Below, in pieces: positions 39,046 to 62,138 of a DNA stretch of 64,000 nucleotides (position 1 is its first letter; every line of letters begins with the position of its first letter). This stretch comes from a candidate division FCPU426 bacterium (GTDB lineage Bacteria > Oederibacteriota > Muellerivitia > Muellerivitales > Muellerivitaceae), in contig CAWKAR010000022.1 in assembly GCA_963847625.1 (NCBI GenBank), forward strand, positions 23,012-87,011, written 5' to 3'. The notes beneath the pieces are model-generated. The model did no database searches and was not told the DNA's origin. It saw only the letters and a list, made by a program, of their open reading frames with translations. The translations under genes were made by a program, and so were the position numbers.

Positions 39046-39064
39046 ATAAAACCGGCCTGAAAAT

Positions 39065-39098
39065 AAAAAAACCCGGGGACCAACTGCTTCCCCGGGTT
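39065..39098 (-). terminator. intrinsic terminator between convergent operons
   Basis: AACCCGGG/CCCGGGTT stem followed by a T-tract on the minus strand. Confidence 0.65.
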
Positions 39099-39376
39099 GC
39101 CTACCTATACTTACTTTTGCTCATGGCCTGGGGATCATTCCCCGGGCAGGAAGGCCATAAAACTCTCTGATAAGGTTTTTTTTCATACCGGAAAGGGTCC
39201 GGCGTTTCAGATTGCCGTGTTACCTTTCTACCCTCTAGACGGCGAAAGTGAAATTTAATCCAAAAAAAGTGAATTTTTTTATCAAACCCATATTTAAAAT
39301 TCAGGGATTTGCTTAATACCCCCGGTTTTATTGAGGTTTAACCTGAAAAAAGGGGCTTCTACAAATGACTTCCGAG

Positions 39377-40726
39377 TTATTTTTCGCGATGATTATTCTC
39401 TAGCCATTCCCTCAAGGAGTCATTATCCGGATCCATATCCAGGATTTTTTGATAGGCTTCCATTGATTTATCATAATAGATATGCGCCAACTTATCCCAT
39501 GCCGGTTTAAAACCAGGTTCCTTTTTAGTGGCTTTGATATACAAATCCAATGCCTCCAAGATCTCTCCTTCTTTTTCTTTTTTCTTACCCAAGTCAAGCA
39601 GTTGGCGGGCGCTCATATTCTCCTCATTCACAACTTTAAATTTGAGCAGAACAGGTTTTAAGGTTTCTTTGTTTGATAAGGATGAAACTGATTTGGGGTG
39701 GTCCCTGGACTGGTCAGTCTCTTGTTTGGAGTTTCGAGGGTTTTCATACGGGGGGAAAGACAGGGTCAGAGAAAGGCGCTGGACGTTTCCCATATCTCCC
39801 TCGAAGGTGAAGGAATAATCCAGTTGAAACCGGCCCAGGGCCGCGCCGGCTCCAAATCCCAGTCCATTCACGTCCCCCAAGTAGTTATCCTGCAAATCGG
39901 AGGAACAACCGGCCCGAATAAAGTAACTCCCCTGAAATGCGTACTCGAACCCGGCCTTAACGCTACTGACACCCTGGAATGCATTATCCAACTCGGCCGA
40001 GAGTAACAGCCTGTGGCGATCCCCCTCCGTCAACTCAATTCGGTAAGCCGCTCCCAATAGCAATTCCAAAGGAAGTTGATAAAACCCGCTTACATCCCCG
40101 ATATTTTTCAGGTTCAATCCGAAGGATAGATCCGGGAGGGGTTTGGAGAGTAAACCCATGTCCCAAACCAAGCTCGAATAATCGTTGCCGCCGATTTCCT
40201 GCTGGATCCATTGCGTTCGGAATCCGGCGAAAAGGAAATCCGCTATCGGGAAGCCGAAAGCGCCGCCAAAACTAAGGTCATAGGGGTCGTAACTCCCCAA
40301 TAAGATTCCTCCGGAATCCCTTTTTTCAATGGCTCCATAGTCGAAATAATTGAAGCCGAAGGCCAAAGTGCCGAGGTCGGATAAGGGATAAGCGACTTCG
40401 GCGGTTTCGTAATATCCGTTGGCGAGGTAGCTGTCATGCGTCAGGGATAATTCCGGGTGCCAAATTTGGGCCAAACCCGCAGGGTTATAGTGGTAAGCCG
40501 CTAAATCGTCCGCCACTGCGGCGAAGCTCTCCCCCATTCCTACCGCTCGGGCGCCCAATCCAATTGAAAGAACCGGAAAGGCGGTGGAACTGGATGAATA
40601 AACGGTTTGCGCGGCCACTGGCATGGCCGCCAGGATCGCCAAGGGTAAGAACCAGGCAACAAGGACCCTGGAAAATTTTATTTTGGGGCAATATTTAAAT
40701 AACCATTTCAGGATTCGATAGTCCAT
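39377..40726 (-). CDS. PorV/PorQ-like outer-membrane beta-barrel with C-terminal TPR
   Basis: LSIGLGARAVGMGESFAAVADD...YNPAGL signature; amphipathic strands; TPR tail ending LREWL. Confidence 0.82.
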   Translation of the reverse strand: MDYRILKWLFKYCPKIKFSRVLVAWFLPLAILAAMPVAAQTVYSSSSTAFPVLSIGLGARAVGMGESFAAVADDLAAYHYNPAGLAQIWHPELSLTHDSYLANGYYETAEVAYPLSDLGTLAFGFNYFDYGAIEKRDSGGILLGSYDPYDLSFGGAFGFPIADFLFAGFRTQWIQQEIGGNDYSSLVWDMGLLSKPLPDLSFGLNLKNIGDVSGFYQLPLELLLGAAYRIELTEGDRHRLLLSAELDNAFQGVSSVKAGFEYAFQGSYFIRAGCSSDLQDNYLGDVNGLGFGAGAALGRFQLDYSFTFEGDMGNVQRLSLTLSFPPYENPRNSKQETDQSRDHPKSVSSLSNKETLKPVLLKFKVVNEENMSARQLLDLGKKKEKEGEILEALDLYIKATKKEPGFKPAWDKLAHIYYDKSMEAYQKILDMDPDNDSLREWLENNHREK

Positions 40727-40739
40727 CTTTTTACCCCAA

Positions 40740-42056
40740 TCAAGGCCGAATGATTGCGAATTTCACCGGTTTCGTCTTGTAGGTTCCGGAAATCGAGGTC
40801 ATTTGCAACAAGTAATAATAGATGCCGTGGGAAAAACCCGAGATATCCAGAGTTTCGGTGTTAGGTCCCGTAAGACCCTGGAATGAGTAAGTGGCCGCCA
40901 ATCCTAAGCTGACGTTATAAATAGATACCTGGACCACCCCGGTTTCACACAAGGTGAAGGATAATGATAAATTCGGCTCGCTGACGGGGTTAGGATAGAC
41001 GTAAGTCCCGAGGATGCCTTGGCAATGGCTTGGGGTCGGCGTCGAGGTGGGGGTGGGGGTAGATGTCAAGGGTGTCAGGGTGCCGGTGGGGGTGAGGGTC
41101 GGTTCCCACCCGCAACCTTGATAAACCGACACGGGACCACCGTTCACATTGCTCACGAAAACATTGCCGGATTTATTGACTGCCACTCCCCAGACAACCG
41201 GTGTAGTATAAGTTGTTAATTGCGACCAATCCGGGCTGTATTTTTGGATGAAATTGCCCTGTGAAAATCCGTTATTATTAGATCCCCCCACGTAAAAATT
41301 TCCCGCCAGATCTGTTCTCATGCCAGATGGATAAGGCGGAACCGCCACCACAATGGGAGTGGGATTCGCCACAGTCGTGTCGAATTTTACGATTGCGCCG
41401 CCATAAGTACTCGTCGCGTACAGATCATTCCCTACTTTGACAAGGGCATTAGTCCCCATAAGAATCCCAGGGCCCCCGTAGGTGGCTGTCGCCGAATAGG
41501 TGGTTCCGCTTCCGGTATATTGGTAAATATAATTCTGGGGGATTGCGGGCGTGGGAGGAGGGAGCGCGGGTATATAGACGTTCTGCTGCGAAACACTCCC
41601 CGCTATATCTTCCACCCAAACCCCAGTGGCGCTGACGCCGGCGGCGATCGGTCCAAGATAATTGTAACCCGAATCGAATTTTTCAACCGCCGCAACCTCA
41701 AAATCCGCCACGTAAATATTTCCAAATCTGTCAACCGCCACGTCCCAGGGGTATTGGAAAGTGACAGGGTCTCCGGGTAAAGGAAAGACAGTGACGGGGC
41801 TGAAGGTGTTGCTGTCAAATACCTGTACCACAAAGTGGGGAAAATCCGTGACGTAAAGGCGGTTTCTGGCATAATCGACAACCATACCGGCGGGCCCGCT
41901 CAATGGGTGGCCAGGGAGGCCTGTAATTTCAGTCAAGCCCTGGCAGAAAATGGAAGCAGGACAAAAAGGGGTGGAAGTTGCGGCTTGGGAAAATCCTGAT
42001 TGAGGCAATGCCCCCAAGATCAAGCCTAGAAGAATGGCCGTTTTGGTCTTTTCCAA
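40740..42056 (-). CDS. secreted NHL-repeat protein with PT linker and T9SS type-A CTD-like domain
   Basis: Signal peptide; PWDVAVDRFGNIYVAD repeats; YVYPNP...SIYN...GIYYY...KFAIIR. Confidence 0.82.
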   Translation of the reverse strand: MEKTKTAILLGLILGALPQSGFSQAATSTPFCPASIFCQGLTEITGLPGHPLSGPAGMVVDYARNRLYVTDFPHFVVQVFDSNTFSPVTVFPLPGDPVTFQYPWDVAVDRFGNIYVADFEVAAVEKFDSGYNYLGPIAAGVSATGVWVEDIAGSVSQQNVYIPALPPPTPAIPQNYIYQYTGSGTTYSATATYGGPGILMGTNALVKVGNDLYATSTYGGAIVKFDTTVANPTPIVVAVPPYPSGMRTDLAGNFYVGGSNNNGFSQGNFIQKYSPDWSQLTTYTTPVVWGVAVNKSGNVFVSNVNGGPVSVYQGCGWEPTLTPTGTLTPLTSTPTPTSTPTPSHCQGILGTYVYPNPVSEPNLSLSFTLCETGVVQVSIYNVSLGLAATYSFQGLTGPNTETLDISGFSHGIYYYLLQMTSISGTYKTKPVKFAIIRP

Positions 42057-42165
42057 TGATCAGATCCCTTACCGGTATTTCTTCCCTGATTTTAGTGGCC
42101 ACCACTAAAGATGCCAGAAAAACTTTGCCGATTTTCCGGCAGACCTGGCTCGGAAGGTCATCGAA

Positions 42166-43179
42166 TTAATCGCCGAATATGACTTCCCTGGATTGGATAT
42201 TTCCCCCCGCATCCAACGTCACAGTATAGGTCCCGGGAGTAACGAGTTTTCCGTTATCGCCCCTTCCGTCCCAGCTGATGAAATTATTGCCTTCCTTGAA
42301 AACCCCGTTGAACAAAAACCTGATCAAATTCCCGGAGGCATTATAAATTTTGACCTCGCCCTGCAGGGAATTTGCCATCGGGAAGGACATGATAACGGGA
42401 AACCCCTCGTCGGTGTGGATCTGGAGCACGGATCCTGTCGTGGGGGGGGGCCCTGCGGAAGGAGTCTGGAAAACCAATAACGAGTTGTTCGAGCTGGTCC
42501 CGGCTCCTTGGGAAGGCAAGGAAGGAGAATTTAACTTCGCGACAAGGACGCTTCCGACGATTCCATTGTCCAAGGGGGCCGCCATGGAATGATTGGCACT
42601 ACCCATTTCCCGGTAACCGGTGATTTTGCTTTTCAAGGTTGTTTTGGCCTTGGCCTTTAGCCGGGCCTTCATTCCACTCAAAACGTGATGTTTTACCTTC
42701 CTCACAGCCGTTTTTTTAATGATTGGAGTGAAGTTTGCGGTTTTCTGGACCTGCTCGGCGGTTTTCTGAATCGTACCGCTTTGATCCAATCCAGTGACAG
42801 CGGAATTCATTCCCGTTACGGCTGGACTGGTTACAGGTAGGTCGCTGGTGGCCTTCGAGGACGTATTGATCCGGAATCCGACATAAAGCAGGCCCACTAC
42901 AGCGGCTATGATAAGGAGGGGCCGGAACGACCTGAAAAAGGACATCCAGGGGGAAGGTTTATACTGTTCCCAAATCGCGTCGATCTTGCTGTCCAGGTGC
43001 GAAGCGATGTCATCGATTCGCATGCCGGGGGCCGTCCCTAGCCTTTCCGCGACAGACTGAGTCACCTTTTCGGAGAATTTGGGGTCCTTTTTCATGAGCT
43101 CGTCGAAAGCGGCTTGAGCCTCTTCCGTAAAGGATCCGTCTAGATAAATTTGGAGCAAATTGTCGGGTGTGAATTTCAT
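42166..43179 (-). CDS. membrane anti-sigma factor with C-terminal FlgD-Ig/CTD-like domain
   Basis: N-terminal LLQIYLDGSF anti-sigma-like helices; single TM; VKIYNASGNLIR...WDGRGDNG...PGTY; ATGA-coupled to ECF sigma. Confidence 0.75.
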   Translation of the reverse strand: MKFTPDNLLQIYLDGSFTEEAQAAFDELMKKDPKFSEKVTQSVAERLGTAPGMRIDDIASHLDSKIDAIWEQYKPSPWMSFFRSFRPLLIIAAVVGLLYVGFRINTSSKATSDLPVTSPAVTGMNSAVTGLDQSGTIQKTAEQVQKTANFTPIIKKTAVRKVKHHVLSGMKARLKAKAKTTLKSKITGYREMGSANHSMAAPLDNGIVGSVLVAKLNSPSLPSQGAGTSSNNSLLVFQTPSAGPPPTTGSVLQIHTDEGFPVIMSFPMANSLQGEVKIYNASGNLIRFLFNGVFKEGNNFISWDGRGDNGKLVTPGTYTVTLDAGGNIQSREVIFGD

Positions 43180-43733
43180 ATTTTAATCTCCTCCCCCTTG
43201 GGAAGTCTCTCACGGACCCGCTCGATAATTTTATTTCGGGCCCGGTATAATGTTGAAGTCACGGTACCTATGGGAATCCTGAGGCGATTGGCGATGGCCT
43301 CGTAGGACAACCCCTTGAGATCCCGAAGGTTGACTATTTCTTTCTCACGGCCTTCCAGGTTCTCTATTTCCCGCCTCACCAGCTGTACCGTTTCTTCGGT
43401 GTAAGGGGGCTTCTGATCTATAGACGGCAAACTCGAAAAAAAATCCAAAGAAAATGGTAAATTTTTTTTCTTTTGTTCCAATAGGTCCCGGCACAGGTTG
43501 ACGGCGATATGGTTCAGCCAGGTCCCCAGGGAACACTCAAAACGGAAAAAACGCAGGTTTTTCAGGGCTTTTATGAAGGTATCCTGGATAACATCCTCTA
43601 CATCGGCGTCTTCCCCCAGGAAATACCAGCATGCGCGAATAAGGGCTTTTTTATAGGAATGATAAATGGCTTGGAAAGCCAGTTGATCACCCTTCAATAC
43701 CTGGTTGACAAGATCGCGTTCGGTCTGGGCCAA
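43176..43733 (-). CDS. ECF RNA polymerase sigma factor
   Basis: GDQLAF, DVEDVIQDTF, FRFECSLGTWL..IAVNLC, GLSYEAIA...GTVTSTLYRAR; TTG start after AAGGA. Confidence 0.93.
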   Translation of the reverse strand: MAQTERDLVNQVLKGDQLAFQAIYHSYKKALIRACWYFLGEDADVEDVIQDTFIKALKNLRFFRFECSLGTWLNHIAVNLCRDLLEQKKKNLPFSLDFFSSLPSIDQKPPYTEETVQLVRREIENLEGREKEIVNLRDLKGLSYEAIANRLRIPIGTVTSTLYRARNKIIERVRERLPKGEEIKI

Positions 43734-43986
43734 TGGATATTCCTTAAAAAACCCCAAAATTAGGTTAATTTTACGGCAATAAAACGGACCTAAAGAGGCC
43801 ATTCCTTTAAGAACAAGGGTTTATTATTAAAAAAGGAATTGAATACCTTGTTTATAATAGAAATAGGCGATATCAATGTGGCCAAATTATACATGATTCG
43901 GGTTATCTTTAAACTTCCTAAAATAGTCAATAATCCTGAGGTGGCAATGGGGGGGCAGGCTTCTTTTCCCTTAAAAAGGGGGTGGG

Positions 43987-44391
43987 TTATGAACCGGATC
44001 CAACGCCAAGCTGGGTCAACACCTTTAGGCTATGGCTTGCGGCGGCCACGACTCGGGCGTTTATGGCGAATGCCGCTTTGGCGATGAGCATTTGGACCAT
44101 TTCCGACGCCAGGTCGACATCCAAAGAATAGAAAAGACCCCCGGGTAAAAGATCAGAGTCCGGTGAACCTGCGGTTCCTTCAAGGCTTCCTGGTCCCACT
44201 TCCCCGTACTGTATCCCTTCCCTTCCGGCAACTCCCTGGACATTCGCAGGCAAGGCGGATTCCTGGTTCATGACTTCCGAAAATGGGACCTCCAAAGCGG
44301 AAGAAATCCTCACTCCGAGAGTATCCATCAGGGTGCTGTTGGATTGAAGCCCCGCTAATCCGTTTTCTAAAGCTGATAATCCCATTTCCAT
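43987..44391 (-). CDS. small flagellar basal-body rod/hook terminal-domain protein (FlgC/FlgE-like ends)
   Basis: N-terminal ALENGLAGL and C-terminal VDLASEMVQMLIAKAAFAINARVV. Confidence 0.7.
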   Translation of the reverse strand: MEMGLSALENGLAGLQSNSTLMDTLGVRISSALEVPFSEVMNQESALPANVQGVAGREGIQYGEVGPGSLEGTAGSPDSDLLPGGLFYSLDVDLASEMVQMLIAKAAFAINARVVAAASHSLKVLTQLGVGSGS

Positions 44392-44485
44392 TCCTCTCTC
44401 TTTATTAACGGCAAATTTATCGAAAACATGAGTTATTTTTTTGGATGAGATATTTTGAAATAGGAGACCTATCGGCGGGAACTTC

Positions 44486-45691
44486 CTAAAAGAAATAAGC
44501 GTTGACCGACAAGCCCGCGTCAAAGCCGGAAAAATCCACCGAGGCCCAACTGTCCCCGCTGGGAACCTTGTCGGTCGGTTCCAGTACCAAGGCGCCTTTG
44601 AGGGTTTTATAGAGTCCGGCGGTTCCCGACCAAAGAGAAGGATTATTGCTGCTGGAAATCGTCGCGTTTCCCGTCAGCCCTGAAAAGGAGGCGTATCGCC
44701 CCCGGAGGGATAATTCGAGGCCGAATCCCGGTGAGAGCATCCACTCGTATCCCAACGCGCCGCTGAGGCAAAAACTGCCGGCCGTAAAATCCAGGGGCCC
44801 TTCGGTAAAGTCGTAGGGTGAGACGATGATCAATTGCCCGAAATAATTGACTACGGCTAAACCATATCCCGCCGCCGCCTTGAGGAAAAACCGGCCGTCT
44901 TTCTGGTTCCAAAAATGGTAATAGGCCAGTTCGGCCGAGAACAGGCTCGGCGCGGCGTCCTGGGCGAAATTATAAGTCACCGAATTACCTGAAATGGTCG
45001 TCACCGCGAGGCCTTCCCCGGCGAAGGAAGTAAACTGGCCCCACGAAAAATCCAGGGCCAACCCGTTGGAAGGGTCCAAGAACGTGCCCCCCTCCAGGGT
45101 AAAAAGAGCCCCATCGTTACCCGCGTCGGCCTTGGCCACCGCCCGGTAAGTCTTGTGCCAGGCTGAAATGGCCTGGTTGAAATCACCCATGGCCCCGTAG
45201 GCGTAACCCCCGTATGTTTTCACCCAAAGCTTAGTGTCCGAAATTGGGTGGGATGGAATCGCCGTGGTTTCCTGGGTTTTTCTGCCCGCGTTCTCTTGAT
45301 CCTGATCTCCTTTGGATCCAACCGTCTCCCCTTCGGAAGCGGCTGTTGGGGCAGAAACAGCTTCCGGATTCCCGGCCCCCAATTGGTCGGCGAACTGCCG
45401 GAGCGAGGGATTATCCGGATGGATTTCCAGGCTCTTTCGGGCGGCCTGCAAAGCTTGGCTGTCTTTTTGAAGGCCGTGGTAGGACTTGGCCATCACTTGG
45501 TAAACCTGCCAAAGGTCCGGCTTGATTTTCAGGGCGTTTTGGCAGAACTGGATGGCCTGGTCGTATTGGGCTTTTTCAAGGGCGTTCACCGCGGCGGCGT
45601 AGTATTGGCTGTAGGTCGTGGCATTTCCCTTGGAAAAGGAAAAAAGAAAGGGAAAAAGAAAAAGAAGGATTAGGAATTTATTCCACATCAT
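44486..45691 (-). CDS. TPR domain plus outer-membrane beta-barrel protein
   Basis: Signal peptide, TPRs (YDQAIQFCQNALKIKPD), barrel strands, C-terminal AGLSVNAYFF. Confidence 0.75.
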   Translation of the reverse strand: MMWNKFLILLFLFPFLFSFSKGNATTYSQYYAAAVNALEKAQYDQAIQFCQNALKIKPDLWQVYQVMAKSYHGLQKDSQALQAARKSLEIHPDNPSLRQFADQLGAGNPEAVSAPTAASEGETVGSKGDQDQENAGRKTQETTAIPSHPISDTKLWVKTYGGYAYGAMGDFNQAISAWHKTYRAVAKADAGNDGALFTLEGGTFLDPSNGLALDFSWGQFTSFAGEGLAVTTISGNSVTYNFAQDAAPSLFSAELAYYHFWNQKDGRFFLKAAAGYGLAVVNYFGQLIIVSPYDFTEGPLDFTAGSFCLSGALGYEWMLSPGFGLELSLRGRYASFSGLTGNATISSSNNPSLWSGTAGLYKTLKGALVLEPTDKVPSGDSWASVDFSGFDAGLSVNAYFF

Positions 45692-45774
45692 TCGCCTTCC
45701 AAATGATAAAAGCCGGTTTCCTAGGAAAAAGAAAACCGGCTTTTGTTGGAACCACATTCAAATCGGACAATCTG

Positions 45775-46260
45775 CTAATTAATGGCGGCCTCAGCCTTCA
45801 TGCGGTACTGAGGCCCAACGCGCACGAGGCCCTTGCAGCTGGGCGCCCCGCACTGGCATTTGAACTCGTAGGACCAGTTCCCCACGTCGTCGGTTTCCGT
45901 GTAGTCCCAGCTGATTTCCTCGCCCGTGGAAATATCCCGGCAGGCCACCAAAACCACCCCGTTCACGACCTTTGAACTTGGTTCACAGGAATGGTTGACG
46001 AAACAGAGGGGATCGCAACCGTTCTCGTAATCGTGGAGCATGATGAAACCGGGGTAAATATACATGGCGTGGTCAATGTTCAGCTTTTCCTCGGGAACGA
46101 CGCGGGAGAGTGATTCAATTGATTCCTCGGGTACCACGATCCCCCCGAACACCCCGATGACGTCGCCTTCCTTGATATCCCTGACCGCGTAAACCCCTTT
46201 GCCTTCCATCCCGCTTTGCCTTACTTCCACTGCTTCGCTGACCCAAGGCTTTATTTTCAT
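45775..46260 (-). CDS. SET-domain protein-lysine methyltransferase with post-SET
   Basis: GKGVYA, FVNHSCEP, GEEISWDY, CQCGAPSC. Confidence 0.92.
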   Translation of the reverse strand: MKIKPWVSEAVEVRQSGMEGKGVYAVRDIKEGDVIGVFGGIVVPEESIESLSRVVPEEKLNIDHAMYIYPGFIMLHDYENGCDPLCFVNHSCEPSSKVVNGVVLVACRDISTGEEISWDYTETDDVGNWSYEFKCQCGAPSCKGLVRVGPQYRMKAEAAIN

Positions 46261-46451
46261 TTGTCCTTGTCTAACCGTCCTTTGTAACAGATTGAGGGTT
46301 TCCCCGCCGGCCGGGCGGGGTCCCTATATATGGGGGTGATTTTATCGCAAACCCCCCGGCGGTTCATCGGTTCTTTGGGATTTTTTTAGGGGGTTTTTAA
46401 AGGGCTTTTGCCCAAGGAGAGGTCCCCCAGGGGGGCAGAGAGGATGAAGGC

Positions 46452-46631
46452 TTGACCCGCCTGGGTGGCCTGAGAAACCCGTTATCGGCTTGGAGAACGA
46501 AGAGATAAAAGCCACTGTGGGTTAACGACCCCGTATACAGGGTTACGGCACCTTATACTGGGTAACGCCTTCGTTTACCGGGTTGCGAGCCCATGCCGCC
46601 AGGAATTCGGCTAGGGAATAATTCGGGTCAA
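46452..46631. ncRNA. candidate rod-like structured RNA (6S-like size, unassigned)
   Basis: Nested complementary pairs TTGACCCG/CGGGTCAA, CCTGG/CCAGG, AACCCG/CGGGTT, AACGAAG/CTTCGTT, ACCC/GGGT. Confidence 0.5.
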
Positions 46632-47386
46632 TTGATAAGCGGATCTTTCAATCCAGCTTCCTTGAAACCCTTGGCGCGAAGCAGGCAGGAATCGCACTTA
46701 CCACATGGTATCCATTCCCCATAAGAATGGACACGGCCAATTCGCGCGCCTCGGCTTGTAGCCTTGGCGCTAGGCCCGTTCCCCTTAGGCTTGGGGTCGT
46801 AACAGGAATGGGTAAGGCTGTAATCCACCTTTAACTTTTGCCCAGCCCTGATGATTTGGGCCTTGGTCATGCGGATCAAGGGAGTGTGGATTTTGAGTTT
46901 CCCCTTCCCTTCCACCCCCTTCTTGGTGGCCAATTTGGCGAGTTTTTCAAAGGCCCGGATGAACTCCGGCCGGCAGTCGGGATATCCGCTGTAATCCAGG
47001 GCGTTCACGCCGATGAAGAGATGCTCCGCGCCCAAGACCTCGGCCCAGGCCATGGCCAACGCCAGGAATACCGTGTTGCGGGCAGGAACGTAAGTGGAAG
47101 GAATTCCCTTCCCCATGGCCCGGAGGCTCCTTTGCTTGGGAACCTTGATCTTCCGATCCGTCAGGGACGAACCACCAATAGAAGTGAGCGGGACATCCAA
47201 CACCAGGTGTTTCTTCACCCCATAGGCCTTGGACACCCTCCGGGCGGCCTTCAGCTCAGCATGATGCCTCTGGCCGTAAAAAAGGGACAGCGCGTAGGGT
47301 TCAAATCCCTGTTTTTTCGCCAGGGCCAGGCAGGTCGTGGAGTCCAGGCCCCCGGAAACCAATACCACGGCCTTCTTTTTTTCCAT
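46628..47386 (-). CDS. queC: 7-cyano-7-deazaguanine synthase
   Basis: [32 protein letters not shown]...CGKCDSC. Confidence 0.97.
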
Positions 47387-47432
47387 TCAGTATCCCCTTG
47401 GTTGGCCATCAGCTATCCGCTACCCACTGCCT

Positions 47433-48095
47433 TTATTTTCCTTTTTTATCATTCGGCCAAACATACTTGTGCATTTGCAACTGGAACCTCACGGGCAACC
47501 GATCCGCTGTGATCCATTCGGCCAAGTCTGATGATTTGAGACTCTTATAAACGGGTGAAAAGAGAAGAGTGTTCTTCCCGGCCAATCCCCGCCCGATAAC
47601 CACCCACTTCGCCCATTCGTAGTCCGCCTTGTCCCGGATGACGAATTTAATCTCATCCTGGCCCGGCACCAGTTTTTCGAGGTTTTCCAAAAGGTTCCTT
47701 AATTCCATGCCGGAACCGGGGCACTTGAGATCCATGATTTTGACAACTCGCCTGGGTACCCTACCCACATCCACCGCCCCGCTGGTTTCAAGAAGCACCT
47801 GGTAGCCCTTTTGGAGGAGGGCTTCCATCAAGGGATAAACGCCCTCCTGTTCGAGTGGTTCCCCGCCCGTGATTTCAACCAATTTGATTCCATAGGATTC
47901 AACCTGAGTCAGGATTTCTTCCGGGTTCCGGTCCTGCCCCTCGTAAAAGGCGTAGGCCGTGTCGCACCATACGCACCTCAGGGAACACCCGGTCAGCCGC
48001 ACGAAGACGCAGGGAAGCCCCGCCCAGGTGGATTCTCCCTGGAGGCTCAAATAAATTTCATTGATTTTCACGCGGATTGCGGATGGTACGGCCAT
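47433..48095 (-). CDS. queE: 7-carboxy-7-deazaguanine synthase (radical SAM)
   Basis: EIYLSLQGE, CSLRCVWCDT, ITGGEPL, LQMHK. Confidence 0.95.
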   Translation of the reverse strand: MAVPSAIRVKINEIYLSLQGESTWAGLPCVFVRLTGCSLRCVWCDTAYAFYEGQDRNPEEILTQVESYGIKLVEITGGEPLEQEGVYPLMEALLQKGYQVLLETSGAVDVGRVPRRVVKIMDLKCPGSGMELRNLLENLEKLVPGQDEIKFVIRDKADYEWAKWVVIGRGLAGKNTLLFSPVYKSLKSSDLAEWITADRLPVRFQLQMHKYVWPNDKKGK

Positions 48096-48098
48096 GGA

Positions 48099-48617
48099 TT
48101 AAAAAACCAGGCCCTGGATGGCCAGCTTGCCGCCCTTGCCCGCCAGTGCTCGCACGTAGATCTTTCCGGAGCGCAGGTTGGCCAGTTCGCTTTTCCGTTT
48201 TTCGCTGAAGTAATACTTCTCAATGCCGAATGTCACCGCGTTATTGTAAAACCATTCGCCCACCACCCAAACGCCCTCCCCGGTTTTCAGGTCGGAGGGA
48301 GGAGGCACCTGGCACCGGACGGCCTGCCAGAGCGTGTATTCGATACCGCCGACATTGACCTGTCCGCCCGCCTTGAGCAATACTCCGATTTGCGCCGCCC
48401 GGCCGGGCTCGGGTTTGGGGAACCCCAGAAGCTGTTCCACCTGCGCGATCTTATACTTCAATTGCAGGTACTGGCCCGAAATCAAGTCGCGCGGATCCAC
48501 GGGCAATGTCTCCAGCAATACGACCTGCCCGGAAGCCTTTATCCACTCCTCGTAACCGACCCAAGCCGAGAAAAAAAGGATTTGGACGAGAAGCGTCCAC
48601 CGGACCCAGCTTTTCAT
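48099..48617 (-). CDS. GDYXXLXY domain protein
   Basis: PVDPRDLISGQYLQLKY, FGIEKYYFSE. Confidence 0.88.
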   Translation of the reverse strand: MKSWVRWTLLVQILFFSAWVGYEEWIKASGQVVLLETLPVDPRDLISGQYLQLKYKIAQVEQLLGFPKPEPGRAAQIGVLLKAGGQVNVGGIEYTLWQAVRCQVPPPSDLKTGEGVWVVGEWFYNNAVTFGIEKYYFSEKRKSELANLRSGKIYVRALAGKGGKLAIQGLVF

Positions 48618-49986
48618 GGCTTCCCCCTTCCCGCGGCGGCCAGCAGCTTTTTACGGCCCTGGTTCAAAAGCCAGGCCGACCCGACGAAAAAGAGCCCCGC
48701 CACGATAAAGGCGACCCCGCTTTGGAGCATGGTCCCGAAATAATCGATGAACCTCGTGAAAACCAAGAGGCCAATGAGCATAATCGCCCAGTTGATTCTC
48801 TTGGGTTGTTTCAGGATGACGGCTTCCCGGATCAGCCAAAGGGCGAAACCCAAATAAGCCAGGTTGGCGGTGACGGAAGCGGTTTTCCCATCCACCCCGG
48901 CCATGAGAAGGAGCCCCAAAATACCGGGCGCCAGGATGAATAATTTTAGGGCACGGATCATCAAAGCGGAGGAAACGGTTTTCGACAGGTCCATGAATCC
49001 CATCAAGAGGGTGCCGGCCAGCAAAAGGACCATGGCCGAAACACCCGAAAACATCGAACCTCTTTCGTACGGCGAATCACCATGCCAGAGGAATGTGATC
49101 GAATAAAGGCACGCGAAGGCGAGGAAAAACCCCCAGCCTTCCCAGGGATGTTGCTCTAGGCGAAAAGCGCCCCTGAGTCCCCAGAAAAGGGCCAGGATGG
49201 CGCCGGCAACGGTAAAGTGCACGATTCCTTCGGACCAGAAAGGGGTGTGGGAAAAAAGAGGGCCCAAAGGAATACCAACAGGCAAAGAAGAATCAGCAAG
49301 CGCCCTTTGTCGCCCAGGTATTTCCTGGCCTGATAAACCGTGTAGGTCCAGAACAAGGCAACTATCAAAAAAGCCGGGCCGTAATCCTGGAGGAACTGGG
49401 GGGAAGTGCCTTCCCAGCCCGTGAATCGCCAGGATAAGCCCGGGCACTCCATCGCGAACCAGGTTCCTTGCGCGTAGGTGCCCTGGAAGGCGGCCCAGAC
49501 AAGGCCGATAGTATGGAGTAAAATCAGAGGCCTGTTTCCAGTGGCCAAAACCAGGGGAAGACCCAACAAAAGCCAAATCAACAAAGGCTTCAAGGGATCA
49601 CCGGACAATTGGTAAATCTGGGCCCAGAGCCCGATACCCGCCAGTGGCAGCATGAGCCAAAGGATGAGAAGGGCCGTGCGGACGGTTTTGTTTTCTGCGG
49701 GCACCCGCTGGTAGCCCTCCCCGGCCAGGGCCAGCAGGACCAGGAATCCGGCTATCTTGATAAAAGCGGGTATTTTCTCCCAGTTGTAGGAAATCACCAG
49801 GATGATACCCAGGGCCACGCAAAGGCCGCCCAAGGCGGTCAAGAGCATCGAGGCGTTGAAGGCGTAGGTCCCCGATTCCTTTTTTGTTTTTTCAAGGATG
49901 GCTTCGGCTTGTTGGGAAGTGATGAGTTTTTCCTTCGCCCATTCCCCAACCTTTTTTTCAAGCCATTTTTCTTCCCGAAACTTCAT
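48614..49986 (-). CDS. DUF2157 membrane protein (one -1 frameshift at ~49252-49257)
   Basis: W...LITSQQAEAI, LGIILVISYNW, AQIYQL; second frame continues to TRFIDYFGTMLQSGVAF; ATGA-coupled to GDYXXLXY gene. Confidence 0.85.
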
Positions 49987-50207
49987 TTGACCGGTCCGTT
50001 CTTTTTGGGATGCGCCATTATTTCATAAATAAAAAGCCTTAACACATTTTTATCGTTTGCCAAATCGCGGGAATTGTAATGAAAAGGGGCCTTTTTGGAA
50101 TGGGCGGACGATCCAAAGAACTCTTATAAGTTCCGCTTAAGTCAGAATTTTTTCTGGGTTAAAAAACCATCCGTAATTGAAGGAAACGGTTTAAGAAAAA
50201 CCCGTTA

Positions 50208-51878
50208 TCAGTAACAGTATCCAGCGTAGATGACGCCTTGTCCGGTGTTGTAAGTCGGTGGCGGCGTTGCGGCTGGCGTTGCCAATATATCCAAGTAAGG
50301 ATTGGGCATGACGGCTCCGCCCCCTTCCCACGTAATCAAGGCATTCGAACCAGATGCGGCTTCCAAAAAAATCGTACTATTTATTGTACTGGCGCAGGCC
50401 AGCCAATAAGTTCCCGCGGGAAGGTTGACGCTTGGCACGACGGGAATATCATTGATCCCGGTGACCAGGGATTGGGGGGCGGATACCCAAATCAGGTCCA
50501 TTGGATAACCGCTGGGGTAATTGGTATAGATGCCCACGTACCCGTAATTGGGAATTCCCATATCGACCGATATCATGGAAACCGACGCGCTTTGGGTGAT
50601 GGCGTACTGTTGAGCCATCGTAGACCCGACAAAGGTTACTGGGTAGCCACCTAGGGATGCGTCCCCAAAAACAGTCGTGGAGGCACAAACAATCGTAATA
50701 GTAGGTGTCGGGGTGTAAGGAAGTGGCGATGGGGTCGGTGTTACGGTCGATGTTCCAGTTGGAGCGGCAGTGGGGCTGTTCGTGGATGTTGGAGTCCCCG
50801 GCGGGGTCGGCGTCATAGTGGAAGTAACAGTATTTATAGAAGTCGGAGTGGAGGTCATAGTCTTCGTAGACGTGTTCATGGCCGTGTTCGTCGCAGTAGA
50901 AGTCATAGTCTTCGTAGACGTTTCCGTGACCGTGTTCGTCGCAGTAGAGGTTATAGTCTTCGTAGACGTGTTCGTGGCGGTGTGTGTGGAAGTTGGCGAT
51001 GGGGGTGGGGTTGAGGTTGGAGTTCCTGGATCAGTGGTGACTGTGGGGGTGAGGGTATTTGTTGGAGATGGAGTGGACGTGGAAGAATTCGTGGGTGTAG
51101 AGGTCACCAGTTGAGTTGCTGTCGGGGTAGTCGTTTCGGTCTCGGTTTCAGTCGCGGTGGTTGTAAAAGTGTCGGTGGATGCGGGAGTCAAGATCGGCGT
51201 CGGCGTTAGTGTGGGAGTTTTAGTATCTGTATCAATCGGGGTGAAAGTGGATGTGTCTGTAGGTATTAATGTTACCGGCTGGGTCGCGGTTTCAGTCGCG
51301 GTGGATGTGGAAGTTTCCGTGGGTGTTGAAGTCAAGATCGAGGTCGGCGTTAAGATAGGGGTTACAGTCTCAGTATCAGTGGGGGTGTAAGTGGGGGTGT
51401 CCGTGGGTGTTAAGGCCACTTGTTGGGTCAGCGTTAAAGTGGGAGTTAAGGTCGTTGTATCAGTCGGAGTGTAAGTGGGGGTGTCTGTGGGAATGAAGGA
51501 CACCGGTTGGGTCAGAGTTAAAGTGGGAGTTAAGGTCGTTGTATCAGTGGAGGTGTCTGTAGGTATTAAAGTCACCGGCTGGGTTGGCGTTATAGTAGGA
51601 GTTACAGTCTCAGTATCAGTCGGGGTGTAAGTTGGGGTATCCGTGGGAATGAAGGACACCGGCTGGGTCGCCGTAATAGAGGGGGTAATGGTTGTTGTAA
51701 AAGTCGCAGTGTTGGTTAAAGGCGGAGTCGCGGTAATGGTGAGAGTCGTGGTTTGGGAGATGGGTAAGGCCATGGTTGGGACTGGATTTGGCGCGAAAGG
51801 CAGGGGTGCGCGCTGGCATCCCCAAAAACCCGCAAAAACCAAGACCAAACAAATAAATAAGGAATATAGAATCCTCAA
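50208..51878 (-). CDS. Thr/Pro-rich surface lipoprotein with C-terminal globular domain
   Basis: SD GGAGG, lipobox FWGC, long TPT-rich stalk, C-terminal LPAGTYWLA domain. Confidence 0.82.
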   Translation of the reverse strand: MRILYSLFICLVLVFAGFWGCQRAPLPFAPNPVPTMALPISQTTTLTITATPPLTNTATFTTTITPSITATQPVSFIPTDTPTYTPTDTETVTPTITPTQPVTLIPTDTSTDTTTLTPTLTLTQPVSFIPTDTPTYTPTDTTTLTPTLTLTQQVALTPTDTPTYTPTDTETVTPILTPTSILTSTPTETSTSTATETATQPVTLIPTDTSTFTPIDTDTKTPTLTPTPILTPASTDTFTTTATETETETTTPTATQLVTSTPTNSSTSTPSPTNTLTPTVTTDPGTPTSTPPPSPTSTHTATNTSTKTITSTATNTVTETSTKTMTSTATNTAMNTSTKTMTSTPTSINTVTSTMTPTPPGTPTSTNSPTAAPTGTSTVTPTPSPLPYTPTPTITIVCASTTVFGDASLGGYPVTFVGSTMAQQYAITQSASVSMISVDMGIPNYGYVGIYTNYPSGYPMDLIWVSAPQSLVTGINDIPVVPSVNLPAGTYWLACASTINSTIFLEAASGSNALITWEGGGAVMPNPYLDILATPAATPPPTYNTGQGVIYAGYCY

Positions 51879-51916
51879 AAACCGCCTCCGGGAAACGATT
51901 CACAGACCGTCAATCA

Positions 51917-51946
51917 TATAGTGTTGTTTGGGCGATATTTATTCCC
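51917..51946 (-). promoter_or_regulatory. putative ECF-sigma promoter GGGAATAAAT-N12-ACACTATA
   Basis: Identical bipartite motif also at 54067-54096. Confidence 0.75.
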
Positions 51947-52341
51947 TCTCGCCACCACTTTTTTTAAGGTTTTTCCAGTTTATCACAACACGGGATTATT
52001 GGTTAAAATCAGCCTTTTCGGGGGATTTGCGGTTGTTTCAAGGCAATCCCCCCTTTTTCCGAACCCTCCTTAATCCATTTAAACCCTCTTATCTCATCCC
52101 GATACATGATTTTATTGAAAGAAGTTTGGAAAATGTTTTCACGTAATAACGCAAACAACCTACCTATAGGGATTGGTAAAGGCTTTTTATTCCCGCCCGT
52201 ATAAAAAATATTCCCGAACCTTAAACGTTCCCAACCCCGTTCCAACGATATAAAATATTGCCTCGTTACGCGCGTTGACGCGTTATGGAACGAATTCAAA
52301 ATATTTACGAAACATCCCGGCCGTAAAAAGGCCTATAAGCC

Positions 52342-52728
52342 ATGATGAATTTCCGCTTCCTGCGCCATTTGAATAAGCGGCTTCTATTTGCGGCCGCCTT
52401 TCTTTTAATTACCTGGCTCGCCTCACCGGCTGTTCCTTTCCAGAATCCCCAACCCGGTTCCTGTTTCGTCTATCCAGCACCCGCCACCAGCAACTGGGCC
52501 TGGGTGGTCTATAACATGCCCCAAAACGGATCGGTCAATGTAAGGGTCTACAACGAGGCCGGGGAATTGGTTTTGGAGGTTGGCGAACCAAAATCGGCCG
52601 GCGTCCAGGAAACGTTTATGAACCTGTTTTATCTTCGCGACGGGGTCTTCCTCTGCAGGGTATTCCTCACCCCCGATGGCGGCGTAACACAGACACTGAA
52701 AACCTTCAAATTCACGGTGGTTCGATGA
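52342..52728 (+). CDS. secreted stand-alone T9SS-CTD-like protein
   Basis: Signal peptide; FVYPAP...VRVYNEAGELV...GVFL...KFTVVR; ATGA-coupled to PorV-like gene. Confidence 0.8.
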   Translation: MMNFRFLRHLNKRLLFAAAFLLITWLASPAVPFQNPQPGSCFVYPAPATSNWAWVVYNMPQNGSVNVRVYNEAGELVLEVGEPKSAGVQETFMNLFYLRDGVFLCRVFLTPDGGVTQTLKTFKFTVVR

Positions 52729-54074
52729 AAAGGCGGTTTTTTAAAAATATCCTATGGGCCTTCTGTCCGTTTTTTCTTTGGATCCCTCTTGTTTCCTTTG
52801 CTGACCAGACCGCTTATACGACCGCTTACATTCCTTATCCTTTGGAAGACATGGGCCATTCCCCCCGGGCCGCGGCCCTGGGCTCGGCTTTCGCAGCCGT
52901 GGAAGGGGACGCCTTCTGTCTATTTGAAAACCCCGCCGGCTTGGGAAACATCCTGGAACAGCAAATTTCGCTTGTCCACCAGTCCTGGATTTCCGACATA
53001 AACCAGGAAACCCTGGTAGGTGCCTTCTCCATGGAAAAACTGGGCATCCTGGCCATCGGGGCCAATTACCTCAATTTCGGGACCATGGACGGCTACGACG
53101 CCAACGGCTTTTCCACCTCGACTTACCGGCCTTACCGCGCCTCCCTGTCCCTGGGTTGGGGGTCTTATATTTATCCAAACTTATCCCTGGGATTCTCCCT
53201 TCGGGGTCTGGAACAATCCCTGGCTTCGGACCAGAACAACATCGCTACATCGTTAAACGCCGGTATGCTCTGGAGCTTGTCTCCACGCCTGAAAATAGGT
53301 GGTTATGGCGCCTTTCTCTATAGCGATGCTGATGCCGGCCTGGGCCAGATGAAATGGGGCGCCTCCTATACCCTGCCGGTGATCGGGGATGACCCGGCGC
53401 TTCTTTTGGCGGATATATCCATGCCGCCCCAGGGGGTTTACAAGATCCAATGCGGAATAGAGCAGACTTTTGTATCCGTGCTGAGTGTCCGGATTGGGAA
53501 CCAATGGGAATTTAAAAACAACGAAATCGGGGGATTTCGGGGATTCGCCGCGGGTTTGGGCCTCCGTTGGAAGGGTCTTGATTTAAGCGCCAGTTTCGCC
53601 CCTGACGGGGACTTGGGCTCCTCCCTCATGCTGGGTCTGACCTATCTTATACCGGTGGAACAACCTGGCCCTCCTCCACCCCCACCCCCTCCCCCCCAAA
53701 AACCCGAACCGGCCCTGGAACCGCCGGTAACTTTCAAACCCCCGGAGAAAATTTCTCCCAATGACGAGGTGATTTGGGTGAAAATGCAATTCAAGCTTCC
53801 AGAACTGGTTTCCGGTGGAACAGCCCCATCCGTCACCCCCTCCCCGGAACGGGACCGTAAGATTGAGATCCTGGCTAAAAAAGTCCAGTCCGATCCCCAG
53901 GATTTCCAAGCCTGGCTGGCCCTGGGAAGCCTCTATTATCAGGCTGGAAAGCCTGATTTTACGGTCCAATGCTTCGAGGAGGCCCTCCGGCTGAAACCGG
54001 ACACCCCCCCCTTGAAAGCCTGGTTGGAGCAATATCACAAGCTATTTCCACCGGTTTCCGCCCCCGGGGAATAA
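52725..54074 (+). CDS. PorV/PorQ-like outer-membrane beta-barrel with poly-Pro linker and TPR
   Basis: SPRAAALGSAFAAVEGD...FENPAGL signature; poly-Pro; TPR ending LKAWL. Confidence 0.82.
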   Translation: MKRRFFKNILWAFCPFFLWIPLVSFADQTAYTTAYIPYPLEDMGHSPRAAALGSAFAAVEGDAFCLFENPAGLGNILEQQISLVHQSWISDINQETLVGAFSMEKLGILAIGANYLNFGTMDGYDANGFSTSTYRPYRASLSLGWGSYIYPNLSLGFSLRGLEQSLASDQNNIATSLNAGMLWSLSPRLKIGGYGAFLYSDADAGLGQMKWGASYTLPVIGDDPALLLADISMPPQGVYKIQCGIEQTFVSVLSVRIGNQWEFKNNEIGGFRGFAAGLGLRWKGLDLSASFAPDGDLGSSLMLGLTYLIPVEQPGPPPPPPPPPQKPEPALEPPVTFKPPEKISPNDEVIWVKMQFKLPELVSGGTAPSVTPSPERDRKIEILAKKVQSDPQDFQAWLALGSLYYQAGKPDFTVQCFEEALRLKPDTPPLKAWLEQYHKLFPPVSAPGE

Positions 54075-54096
54075 ATCGGGCCCTTCCGACACTATA
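54067..54096 (+). promoter_or_regulatory. putative ECF-sigma autoregulatory promoter GGGAATAAAT-N12-ACACTATA
   Basis: Directly upstream of the ECF sigma SD (AAGGA); identical to motif at 51917-51946. Confidence 0.75.
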
Positions 54097-54110
54097 GAGT
54101 AAGGACAAAA

Positions 54111-54683
54111 ATGGAAAGCGAACGGGACCTAGTCAAAAAAATACTTTCCGGCGACAAGGAAGCTCAAACCCGTTTTTACCAGGAAAACGCGAGGCGCCTT
54201 TACCCCATTTGCGTGCATTTTTTGGGATACCAGGACCTCGAAGCCGAGGACCTCGTGCAAGAGGCCTTCCTCATCGCCTTCAGGAAACTCGCGCAGTTTG
54301 AGTTCCGTTCCAGCCTCTATACCTGGATGGCCCATATTTGCGTGAACCTTTGTTACGAAAGGCTGAGGAAAAGAAAACGGGAGTTGGGGACCCTACATGA
54401 GGATTTGGAACGGATGTCCCAGCCCCAAGCGGGAATTCGGTTGCAGGAGGAACAATTGGAGGCGGAAAAAAGGAGCCAGCTGGAAACCCTGGATCGGCTG
54501 ATGAAATCCATGAGCGAAAAATGCCGGCAGGTCCTGGAACTTCGGGACCGCCAGGGCATTAGTTATATCGATCTCTCCCGGAAGTTGAAGATGCCGCCCG
54601 GGACCGTGATGTCCCAATTGGCCCGTTGCCGCCAGGCCTTGAAGAGCTTGCTGGAAAGCGAACGAAGGGAAGTGGAGATTTGA
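54111..54683 (+). CDS. ECF RNA polymerase sigma factor
   Basis: GDKEA, EAEDLVQEAF, FEFRSSLYTWM..ICVNLC, GISY...GTVMSQLARCR. Confidence 0.94.
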   Translation: MESERDLVKKILSGDKEAQTRFYQENARRLYPICVHFLGYQDLEAEDLVQEAFLIAFRKLAQFEFRSSLYTWMAHICVNLCYERLRKRKRELGTLHEDLERMSQPQAGIRLQEEQLEAEKRSQLETLDRLMKSMSEKCRQVLELRDRQGISYIDLSRKLKMPPGTVMSQLARCRQALKSLLESERREVEI

Positions 54684-55327
54684 ACCCATTGGTGGAGGAA
54701 TATTTCAAGCGTGACCTGACCGAGGCGGAAGAAACGCGCCTGGCCGAGATTCTCCATGCCTCTCCCGACGAGGCCTTGCGGTTCGCCCAGGGAATGGCCG
54801 CCCATTACCTGGAGTTGGGCCTGCCCGAACCCGTATGGCCCGAAAAACCCATGGCCTATCCGGACACCCTGGTAAAACCCGTGAAGCATTTCCCCTGGTT
54901 AGGCATGTCAGTCTTTCTCTTGATACTCATCCTTTTAGGTCTCATCAAATTGAATACCGTGAAGGAATCCTTGCCTGTGTCCGCACCCGTACCCCACCCG
55001 AAGGCCCTGCTCAAGAAAAATCCCCTGGCGGTTCATCGTGAGGCGCCGCCCGCTCCCTTCCTCCCCCCAGCCGCACCGCCCAGCCGGTATGAGGAGCTTT
55101 CGGTGACCGTAGAGATGCCCCAAAGCGCCTTGGCGACGGTAAAAGTTTTCGATCAAACCGGGAACGTCGTTCGCACCCTTTTCGCGGGCATTCTCCCGTC
55201 GGGCCGGCAGACATTCATTTGGGATGGAAAAACCACCCAGGGATTGAACTCCGCGCCAGGCCTCTACACCCTCGAGGTGCGCTCGGGCCAAAACCTGATG
55301 AAAAAACAGATCCGGTTACAGCCCTAA
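54680..55327 (+). CDS. membrane anti-sigma factor with C-terminal FlgD-Ig/CTD-like domain
   Basis: TTGA overlap with sigma; LVEEYFKRDL N-terminus; TM; VKVFDQTGNVVRTL...WDGK...PGLY. Confidence 0.78.
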   Translation: MNPLVEEYFKRDLTEAEETRLAEILHASPDEALRFAQGMAAHYLELGLPEPVWPEKPMAYPDTLVKPVKHFPWLGMSVFLLILILLGLIKLNTVKESLPVSAPVPHPKALLKKNPLAVHREAPPAPFLPPAAPPSRYEELSVTVEMPQSALATVKVFDQTGNVVRTLFAGILPSGRQTFIWDGKTTQGLNSAPGLYTLEVRSGQNLMKKQIRLQP

Positions 55328-61996: not shown

Positions 61997-62138
61997 ATTT
62001 CCTCCAAGATTTATTAAATTAATTTTCAGCACAAAGCTATTTTGCCAGGGTGGTAGGTTAAACTAAATGAATTGACATGTCCAATAAAAAAAGCGTTTAA
62101 ATAAAGGGAAAATCGTTTCACTTAACGATAAATTTTTT

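Follow-up and report, generated by a model that had tools for sequence, protein, structure and literature searches.

Can the C-terminal domain (CTD) that tags a protein for type IX secretion, together with the outer-membrane barrel that carries it, also inform a sigma factor of the extracytoplasmic function (ECF) type about events in the cell envelope? This question is raised by a stretch of 64,000 nucleotides (nt), called the window throughout, which belongs to one contig (CAWKAR010000022.1, positions 23,012 to 87,011) of a 4.43-Mb assembly in 63 contigs (GCA_963847625.1, 93.9% complete) from an uncultured bacterium of peat that belongs to candidate division FCPU426. The window holds two copies of a four-gene module made up of an ECF sigma factor, a membrane anti-sigma factor ending in a FlgD-type immunoglobulin-like (Ig) domain, a protein with a CTD, and a PorV-like barrel with a tail of tetratricopeptide repeats (TPR). 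As judged from the sequences compared here, this quartet is a conserved unit, inherited together beyond chance.

The quartet had been proposed, twice and in permuted order, by a first-pass annotation made from the letters of the window alone, and both copies were found where it had placed them when the modules were checked by listing of open reading frames (ORFs), translation, and Pfam and NCBIfam scans:

43176..43802, minus strand: module 1 ECF sigma factor P0001, longest ORF 208 amino acids (aa), with Sigma70_r2 and r4_2
42166..43179, minus strand: module 1 anti-sigma factor P0002, 337 aa, FlgD_ig 40.7 bits (residues 271-324)
40740..42056, minus strand: module 1 partner P0003, 438 aa, NHL 49.2 bits, Por_Secre_tail 29.2 bits (cut-off 27)
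39377..40726, minus strand: module 1 PorV-family barrel with C-terminal TPR tail P0004, 449 aa, NF033709 141.2 bits (cut-off 90)
52342..52728, plus strand: module 2 partner P0005, 128 aa, a signal peptide and a bare CTD, Por_Secre_tail 18 bits
52725..54074, plus strand: module 2 PorV-family barrel with proline linker and TPR tail P0006, 449 aa, NF033709 103 bits
54111..54683, plus strand: module 2 ECF sigma factor P0007, 190 aa, Sigma70_r2 53.8 bits, TIGR02937 82.1 bits
54626..55327, plus strand: module 2 anti-sigma factor P0008, up to 233 aa, start uncertain, FlgD_ig 49 bits

By their alignments, the counterparts in the two modules are real homologues: the barrels share 27% identity over their full length (E 5e-32), the sigma factors 31% (E 2e-30), the CTD proteins 23% (E 6e-6), and the anti-sigma factors 32% over the Ig domain only (E 1e-12). 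The short paralogue motifs named in the first-pass annotation (TERDLV/SERDLV, GDMG/GDLG, and LREWL/LKAWL) are present in the translations. A third full module lies on contig C27 of the same genome:

Module 3, C27, in order: BNR/Sortilin CTD protein, NHL CTD protein, barrel with TPR tail (518 aa), sigma factor, FlgD_ig anti-sigma factor, 2,792-aa multi-NHL CTD protein

Beyond this genome, the full-length barrel with its TPR tail occurs in several copies per genome across the family to which the window belongs; all 30 other family genomes match the barrel profile, most of them being among the full-length barrel and TPR matches listed, and each family genome examined carries three or more copies of the module, up to seven. 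In four good family genomes, a sigma factor, an anti-sigma factor, and at least one CTD partner stand beside the barrel at all 20 of the barrel and TPR loci listed. Locus L117 was rejected as a sigma-less exception, its sigma factor having been revealed by a six-frame search. A pattern search with one genome per species returned 80 loci, which overlap in part with the loci from the family genomes, and in 12 of these the match spans the whole barrel together with the TPR tail; sigma and anti-sigma factor adjoin the barrel in all eight that have enough flanking sequence, the other four being cut by contig ends. The expectation that the quartet would be conserved in other genomes was thus borne out in both sets. 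One of the eight loci, L078, comes from a metagenome-assembled genome labelled Spirochaetia, in which transfer and binning error are both possible; its cluster contains a barrel with a TPR tail and a second barrel that lacks one, and its genome contains only one full-length match to the anti-sigma factor.

The genes of the quartet have also changed together. Three gene orders are found in the family (sigma-anti-CTD-barrel, sigma-anti-barrel-CTD, and CTD-barrel-sigma-anti), so that the earlier statement, by which the barrel always has the CTD gene immediately before it, is correct for the window but fails in the family, where several loci run sigma, anti-sigma, barrel, CTD. As the distances of sigma factor, anti-sigma factor, and barrel co-vary among 19 modules (Mantel rho 0.68-0.70, p 0.001, in a kind of test that relatedness inflates), the modules are argued to duplicate and diverge as units. 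The genome encodes eight ECF sigma factors of this clade, and a FlgD_ig protein follows all three that are linked to a barrel with a TPR tail and none of the five others.

The link between CTD gene and barrel reaches further than the link to the sigma factor. Of the 16 PorV-family loci in the genome of the window, 12 exceed the cut-off of NF033709, and a CTD-bearing gene lies directly upstream on the same strand for 11 of the 16 barrels. A profile search of 99 genomes of the phylum gave PorV-family barrels in all 99. The other 68 loci of the pattern search belong by record title to Elusimicrobia, Krumholzibacteria, WOR-3, TA06, Zixibacteria, KSB1, and others; a CTD gene is directly upstream of 54 of their 74 barrels, and no sigma factor of ECF size is found within three genes of these barrels. 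Because the CTD gene precedes the barrel so often (11 of 16 and 54 of 74), cognate pairs of cargo and barrel can be argued for. In other families of the phylum, sigma and anti-sigma factor are absent from all six full-length barrel and TPR loci examined, which retain the CTD gene and the TPR tail.

Both sigma factors of the window belong to the ECF (group IV) sigma-70 family, as TIGR02937 (cut-off 42.9) gives them 89.2 and 82.1 bits and Sigma70_r2 and r4_2 are above the Pfam cut-offs (49.7 and 47.3 bits, respectively, in module 1). The start of the module 1 sigma factor at TTG 43733, as proposed earlier, is probably the real one, as it gives a protein of about 185 aa and the orthologous sigma factors have 185-186 aa. 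No named ECF group can be assigned, because no equivalog-level model reaches its cut-off for the sigma factor of either module. FlgD, PorV, TPR, and Ig-like domains find no mention in the main text, supplements aside, of the parts of the ECF reclassification paper that were available (PMC7826278).

The anti-sigma genes lie directly 3' of the sigma genes, and in module 1 the start of P0002 overlaps the stop of the sigma gene. In P0002, helices at the N-terminus and one membrane helix are followed by a long low-complexity linker and the C-terminal FlgD-type Ig domain. The same plan emerges from the AlphaFold2 model of P0008, in which three N-terminal helices (20-63) are followed by a membrane helix (93-107), a disordered stretch, and a confident beta-sandwich (158-231). 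The best folds for P0008 are Ig domains of FlgD (7bhq_B, E 1.8e-5, 33% identity), followed further down the list by the PorZ and PorU entries and by the RgpB and NucA CTDs. None of the module anti-sigma factors matches a Pfam anti-sigma model; in the family alignment, the homologue from L078 retains an HxxxCxxC zinc motif. Within the genome, profiles seeded with the FlgD_ig domain of the anti-sigma factors and with the CTDs of the cargo converge on 96 and 119 proteins, respectively, 90 of which are common to both; the two kinds of domain form one superfamily.

As for the barrels, both exceed the cut-off of the PorV/PorQ family model given above, and both fall far below those for PorV proper (NF033710, 63.3 and 35.2 bits for P0004 and P0006, cut-off 250) and PorQ proper (NF033711, 89.3 and 87.7 bits, cut-off 220). 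On these scores, they are paralogues within the PorV/PorQ family and neither PorV nor PorQ themselves. The AlphaFold2 model of P0006 (mean predicted local distance difference test 75.5) has a barrel of about 14-16 DSSP strands (79-309), a disordered proline-rich linker (310-372), and four helices (374-440). In a Foldseek search with this model, the PorV chains of the SprA translocon come first (8gl6_F, E 3e-11; 6h3i_F, E 3e-9), above TbuX, TodX, and FadL, which agrees with the earlier view that the barrels are PorV-like and not of FadL type. The C-terminal tails of PorV-family barrels in this genome are OmpA domains in four cases, fn3 in four, and TPR in four, some barrels having an internal FlgD_ig domain as well; among the paralogues outside the modules, OmpA is found in four, fn3 in four, and a different TPR array in one. 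Since the paralogues carry peptidoglycan-binding OmpA domains at the same position, the tails of the module barrels are argued to be periplasmic.

The partner proteins are more varied. P0003 has a signal peptide, an NHL beta-propeller, a Thr/Pro linker, and a CTD, which is above the cut-off for PF18962 and, with 18.6 bits, below that for TIGR04183 (cut-off 23). The CTD of P0005 is below the cut-offs of both models for type A CTDs (18.0 bits for Por_Secre_tail, E 0.004, and 17.1). An iterated profile from the same genome places both proteins among about 120 C-terminal domains of this kind. A bare CTD as partner is found in five modules, namely module 2 and four further ones with the order CTD-barrel-sigma-anti. 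Ten barrel-adjacent partners from the family were scanned, of which five have NHL, two PA14 with CBM9, one LamG with DUF11, and two no family, with enzyme domains in none of the ten. From these domains (NHL, PA14 with CBM9, lectin-like), the partners look like sensors built of binding modules, for glycans or ligands, and not like enzymes.

The regulatory side of the question can be approached through promoter motifs, as upstream regions of module and neighbouring genes share the ECF-type promoter GGAATAAA-N14-CACT. The promoters and associated features of the window are the following:

54068..54093, plus strand: GGAATAAA-N14-CACT before the module 2 sigma gene, overlapping the stop codon of the barrel gene
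51920..51945, minus strand: GGAATAAA-N14-CACT before P0009, with the motif 42 nt upstream
50208..51878, minus strand: Thr/Pro-rich lipoprotein P0009, 556 aa, with a lipobox, divergent from module 2, candidate target of the module 2 sigma factor
43886..43913, minus strand: housekeeping-type promoter TTTAAA-N16-TATAAT with TG, upstream of the module 1 sigma gene
39045..39262, minus strand: ECF-type promoter GGATTAAA-N12-CGTCTAGAG (39236-39261) and a unit of about 180 nt closed by a GC hairpin and a T-run, just downstream of the module 1 barrel gene

Genome-wide, GGAATAAA-N14-CACT has 17 strict matches, 12 of them with exactly N14, where about 2 would be expected at equal base use, and strict sites precede the sigma genes of modules 2 and 3, the 2,792-aa protein, and P0009. 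When 29 module loci (364 kb) were searched with a slightly looser GGAATAAA pattern, 24 matches were obtained against about 0.3 expected, lying before sigma genes (8), barrels (2), CTD proteins (3), other neighbours (8), and no called gene (3). A second ECF-type class, GGATTAAA-N12/13-CGTCTA(G/T)AG, has 12 matches in the genome against about 0.3 expected and stands before the NHL-CTD gene of module 3 as well as before four CTD proteins (about 1,000-1,500 aa). In a near-identical extended form, GGATTAAATCGGC...CCGTCTAGAGGGTGTGGAAA, a promoter recurs at 12 genome sites (e.g. C28:130966, C45:65061, C45:71178, and C60:59000); the sites before several CTD proteins of about 1,000-1,500 aa would, by their sequence, make up a second ECF-type regulon. 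Which sigma factor uses which promoter class is suggested by adjacency only.

On this basis, the sigma factor appears to drive neighbouring surface-protein genes. The earlier proposal that it expresses surface lipoproteins holds for such neighbours, which include one lipoprotein, P0009, sharing its motif with the module 2 sigma gene, but does not extend to lipoproteins in general; going by the motif, the targets are mostly the sigma gene itself, barrel and cargo, and large CTD proteins. In P0009, a stalk of Thr/Pro repeats extends over about 370 residues and the C-terminal domain has about 160 aa, with no Pfam family matching. Because this domain is confined to one other ORF of the same genome, with no occurrence among the neighbours of other modules, the flanking targets are not conserved as proteins. 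The P0009 gene also accounts for a spike in GC skew (0.31) at 50-52 kb.

By alignment, the unit of about 180 nt that lies downstream of the module 1 barrel gene is kept at the same place in three other genomes (L004, L127, and L113), and it comes near no gathering score in Rfam. It is a candidate for a sigma-dependent small RNA, judging by its promoter, hairpin, and T-run. The sigma-E-dependent small RNAs provide a comparison for such a unit.

The machinery by which the CTD proteins would leave the periplasm is only partly recognizable. The first-pass annotation had asked for SprA and PorKLMN, of which an SprA-like gene was found: a frame of 2,013 aa matches in four separate pieces, none of which reaches the 200-bit cut-off (117, 71, 36, and 26 bits). 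PorL and PorM were not detected. No match to GldM, GldL, or PorP (TIGR03519) was obtained in the genome; GldK gave generic C-terminal matches below the cut-off and PorU matches through CTD-like parts only in the genome profile search. Several of the models for type IX secretion system (T9SS) proteins are silent in control genomes too and the genome is 93.9% complete, so that these results do not prove absence. A complete T9SS is thus not found, and going by these matches the term holds here in a reduced sense only, that of SprA and PorV-like proteins. The 2,013-aa gene is followed by a gene of 1,580 aa (L002:5449-16229, contig C45 of the same genome); neither has a Pfam family.

The observed gene unit, its conservation and co-divergence, the PorV-like fold of the barrels, and the ECF-type promoters can be joined into a scheme in which both the role of the barrel as an anchor and all physical contacts between module proteins are our inference. 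Each module would be a self-contained regulatory cassette in which an ECF sigma factor is joined by a single-pass anti-sigma factor with cytoplasmic N-terminal helices, a long disordered linker in the periplasm, and a C-terminal FlgD-type Ig domain from the superfamily of the CTD tags. This pair would be genetically locked to a PorV-family barrel with a periplasmic TPR tail and to its CTD-tagged partner. The barrel would most likely be the cognate carrier or anchor of the partner, as PorV/PorQ and PorP/SprF barrels are in Bacteroidota, and the partner would be a ligand-binding module (NHL propeller, PA14 with CBM9, or lectin-like) or, in module 2, the CTD alone. The anti-sigma factor would read the state of its own pair of CTD partner and barrel in the periplasm, where the CTD might be the ligand of the Ig domain, as the CTD of PorA is for PorY, or the barrel or its tail might contact the anti-sigma factor, as FecA does with FecR. 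Once freed, the sigma factor would transcribe its own gene, barrel and partner, and adjacent large genes for surface proteins from GGAATAAA-N14-CACT promoters, with a related class, GGATTAAA-N12-CGTCTAG, beside module 1. A bare CTD facing an Ig domain suits the logic of PorA better than a relay from a surface ligand, while partners with NHL or CBM domains suit a receptor role. We regard the central claim, a cassette in which the anti-sigma factor reads its cognate CTD partner and barrel, as evenly balanced between true and false.

Several observations weigh against this scheme. The Ig domains of the anti-sigma factors score higher with the profile of FlgD than with that of the CTDs in 26 of 27 cases, where they form a branch of their own, and in the fold search the domain is nearer to FlgD than to solved T9SS CTDs; the idea that it is a copy of the CTD of its own partner was rejected on these grounds, and because the Ig domain belongs to the FlgD-type branch, mimicry of the CTD is not established. 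The TPR tail and the Ig domain do not co-vary once the common history of the modules is accounted for (partial rho of 0.05 given the sigma factor, in a weak test on 19 related modules). A tail of identical type is found in all six sigma-less loci of barrel and CTD from other families of the phylum, and since it is kept there it must have a function that is independent of the anti-sigma factor. Because PorL, PorM, PorP, and PorU were not detected, the way in which the CTD proteins cross the outer membrane is itself uncertain. The promoter of the module 1 sigma gene is of housekeeping and not of ECF type, a promoter (TGTATAAT) that is kept in the orthologous loci L004 and L009, and no GGAATAAA-type motif was found upstream of the module 2 CTD gene. 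The survey is also bound to its methods, with ORFs of at least 60 aa, gene calls outside the window that are longest ORFs, and profiles for CTD, barrel, and sigma factor that derive from this genome.

Part of this evidence would equally suit co-regulation without feedback, in which the sigma pair serves as an ordinary sensor of envelope or nutrients, the Ig domain senses some other cue (a glycan, a cell-wall fragment, or a misfolded protein) and barrel and partner are simply the target operon. Sigma-type promoters do precede barrel and cargo genes, the TPR-tailed barrel and its cargo work without a sigma factor in other families, Ig domain and TPR tail lack specific co-variation, and ECF pairs commonly adjoin their regulon, according to parts of the text of PMC7826278. 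Against this stands that the four genes remain linked through repeated duplications and in three gene orders at all 20 loci, and that this type of anti-sigma factor is confined to the barrel-linked sigma factors of the genome (three of three, against none of five). It is difficult to see why a partner that was no more than a regulon product would consist of a bare CTD, and the partners are binding modules instead of enzymes. Co-regulation alone is a possible explanation that we hold to be somewhat doubtful.

The first-pass annotation had favoured a relay, comparable to that of FecA and FecR, in which the barrel displays the partner, the signal of a bound ligand passes through the barrel to the TPR tail, and the tail contacts the anti-sigma factor. 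Such a relay would fit partners that bind ligands, and the termini of PorV/FadL-type barrels should be periplasmic, as the OmpA domains of the paralogues indicate, which would place TPR tail and Ig domain in the same compartment; within the family, moreover, the sigma pair goes only with TPR-tailed barrels. This proposal fares badly, as the tail is conserved in the six sigma-less pairs, co-variation between Ig domain and tail is missing, and the bare CTD of module 2 and its four relatives cannot bind an outside ligand. A complex prediction for one pair, made without controls (P0006 residues 27-449 with P0008 110-233), scored 0.23 and 0.00, below the mark of 0.32, and speaks neither for nor against the relay. 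We consider the relay unlikely. That the barrels are FadL-type importers of hydrophobic compounds, with the cassette regulating uptake and not surface display, would be in keeping with weak Toluene_X and UPF0164 matches at the N-terminal hatch motif and with FadL, TodX, and TbuX in the fold list, but NF033709 is above its cut-off where Toluene_X is far below its own, PorV chains rank first, and the link to CTD genes is systematic, all of which makes an importer very improbable. The cassette in which the anti-sigma factor reads its own CTD partner and barrel is the reading that we prefer. Its widest form would be a new class of trans-envelope signalling, in which a cargo-specific PorV-like barrel and a CTD partner, ligand-binding or bare, replace the TonB-dependent transducer and the anti-sigma factor reads them in the periplasm through a domain from the fold family of the tag, so that the status of surface display or export is coupled directly to an autoregulated ECF sigma factor, possibly with a sigma-dependent small RNA as a second output; this must be taken as tentative.

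Further genes lie around the modules in the window. Two large secreted-looking proteins are encoded convergently with module 2 at 55368-58466 (minus strand, 1,032 aa, weak match to a glycoside hydrolase family 5 cellulase) and 58628-62032 (minus strand, 1,134 aa, a PPC domain just below the cut-off), and an ECF-type motif was found before neither. A transposase of insertion-sequence type with DUF4372 and DDE_Tnp_1 is located near the end of the window (62152-63321, minus strand). Directly upstream of the module 1 sigma gene, a 178-aa ORF at 43987-44523 (minus strand) has a Flg_bbr_C match of 24.7 bits, and next to it come genes for a TPR protein, a SET-domain protein, and queuosine. Four runs from peat metagenomes, all of DNA type and from one study, contain part of the stretch, with no RNA run listed.

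The interest of such modules lies in the coupling of secretion to gene expression. Feedback from the T9SS to expression is known only from one pathogen, through PorA, PorXY, and SigP, and is still being worked out, while the same idea appears here hard-wired as a compact four-gene unit that is present in multiple copies in an uncultured family. Sigma factor, anti-sigma factor, promoter, barrel, and CTD protein would make a minimal system that can be rebuilt, and with which one could ask whether a secretion tag can double as a signal. In addition, many cargo-specific PorV-family paralogues with periplasmic additions outside Bacteroidota challenge the picture of one general PorV shuttle that serves every type A tag.

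In the FecA-FecR-FecI system, the genes for an ECF sigma factor and its single-pass anti-sigma factor adjoin that of an outer-membrane barrel, and this TonB-dependent surface receptor reports to the cytoplasm. The modules likewise have a sigma and an anti-sigma factor beside a barrel that is itself a target of the sigma factor, but their barrel is PorV/FadL-like and the periplasmic domain of their anti-sigma factor is an Ig domain of FlgD type instead of FecR type. No TonB-dependent receptor, STN, or FecR domain is found among the Pfam matches of module and flanking proteins. Within the T9SS, outer-membrane components with TPR or OmpA-like periplasmic domains exist as well; in this genome, such domains are fused to PorV-like barrels and do not form a separate lipoprotein. 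The PorP/SprF shuttle barrels for type B CTD cargo in Flavobacterium johnsoniae resemble the modules in that a cargo gene is linked to its own carrier or anchor barrel (parts of PMC12618676), whereas the module barrels belong to the PorV/PorQ family and the tags are of type A or FlgD_ig kind. Because the same parts of PMC12618676 have all type A CTDs recognized by a single PorV shuttle, cargo-specific PorV paralogues depart from that picture.

No description of the quartet cassette was found in the literature, supplements aside, and in the parts of the Goldbacteria paper (PMC7031533) that were available, terms for T9SS and sigma factors lead to one mention in the reference list only. The closest precedent is, by our comparison, the circuit of PorA, PorV, PorY/PorX, and SigP in Porphyromonas gingivalis. 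According to parts of PMC7712824 and PMC12152298, the small CTD protein PorA interacts with PorV, and in the periplasm its CTD binds the sensor PorY and increases SigP activity; the first-pass annotation had named the binding of CTDs by PorV and the TonB-dependent systems as precedents and had overlooked this signalling from a CTD to an ECF sigma factor. A small CTD protein, a PorV-like barrel, and an ECF sigma factor are also the cast of module 2, and in P. gingivalis the CTD acts on an inner-membrane sensor and an autoregulated ECF sigma factor controls secretion-related genes. The modules differ in that a membrane anti-sigma factor with an Ig domain replaces the PorY/PorX two-component system, with no kinase or response-regulator genes in or beside the three modules (PorX and PorY were not searched for in the rest of the genome). 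Their barrel is a dedicated, TPR-tailed paralogue and not the general PorV, and their parts are encoded together, in multiple copies, in a lineage outside Bacteroidota in which PorL, PorM, and PorU were not detected. The cassette would amount to surface signalling of the ECF sigma/anti-sigma kind in which the partner is PorV-like, and it could be a new class, if the coupling is demonstrated.

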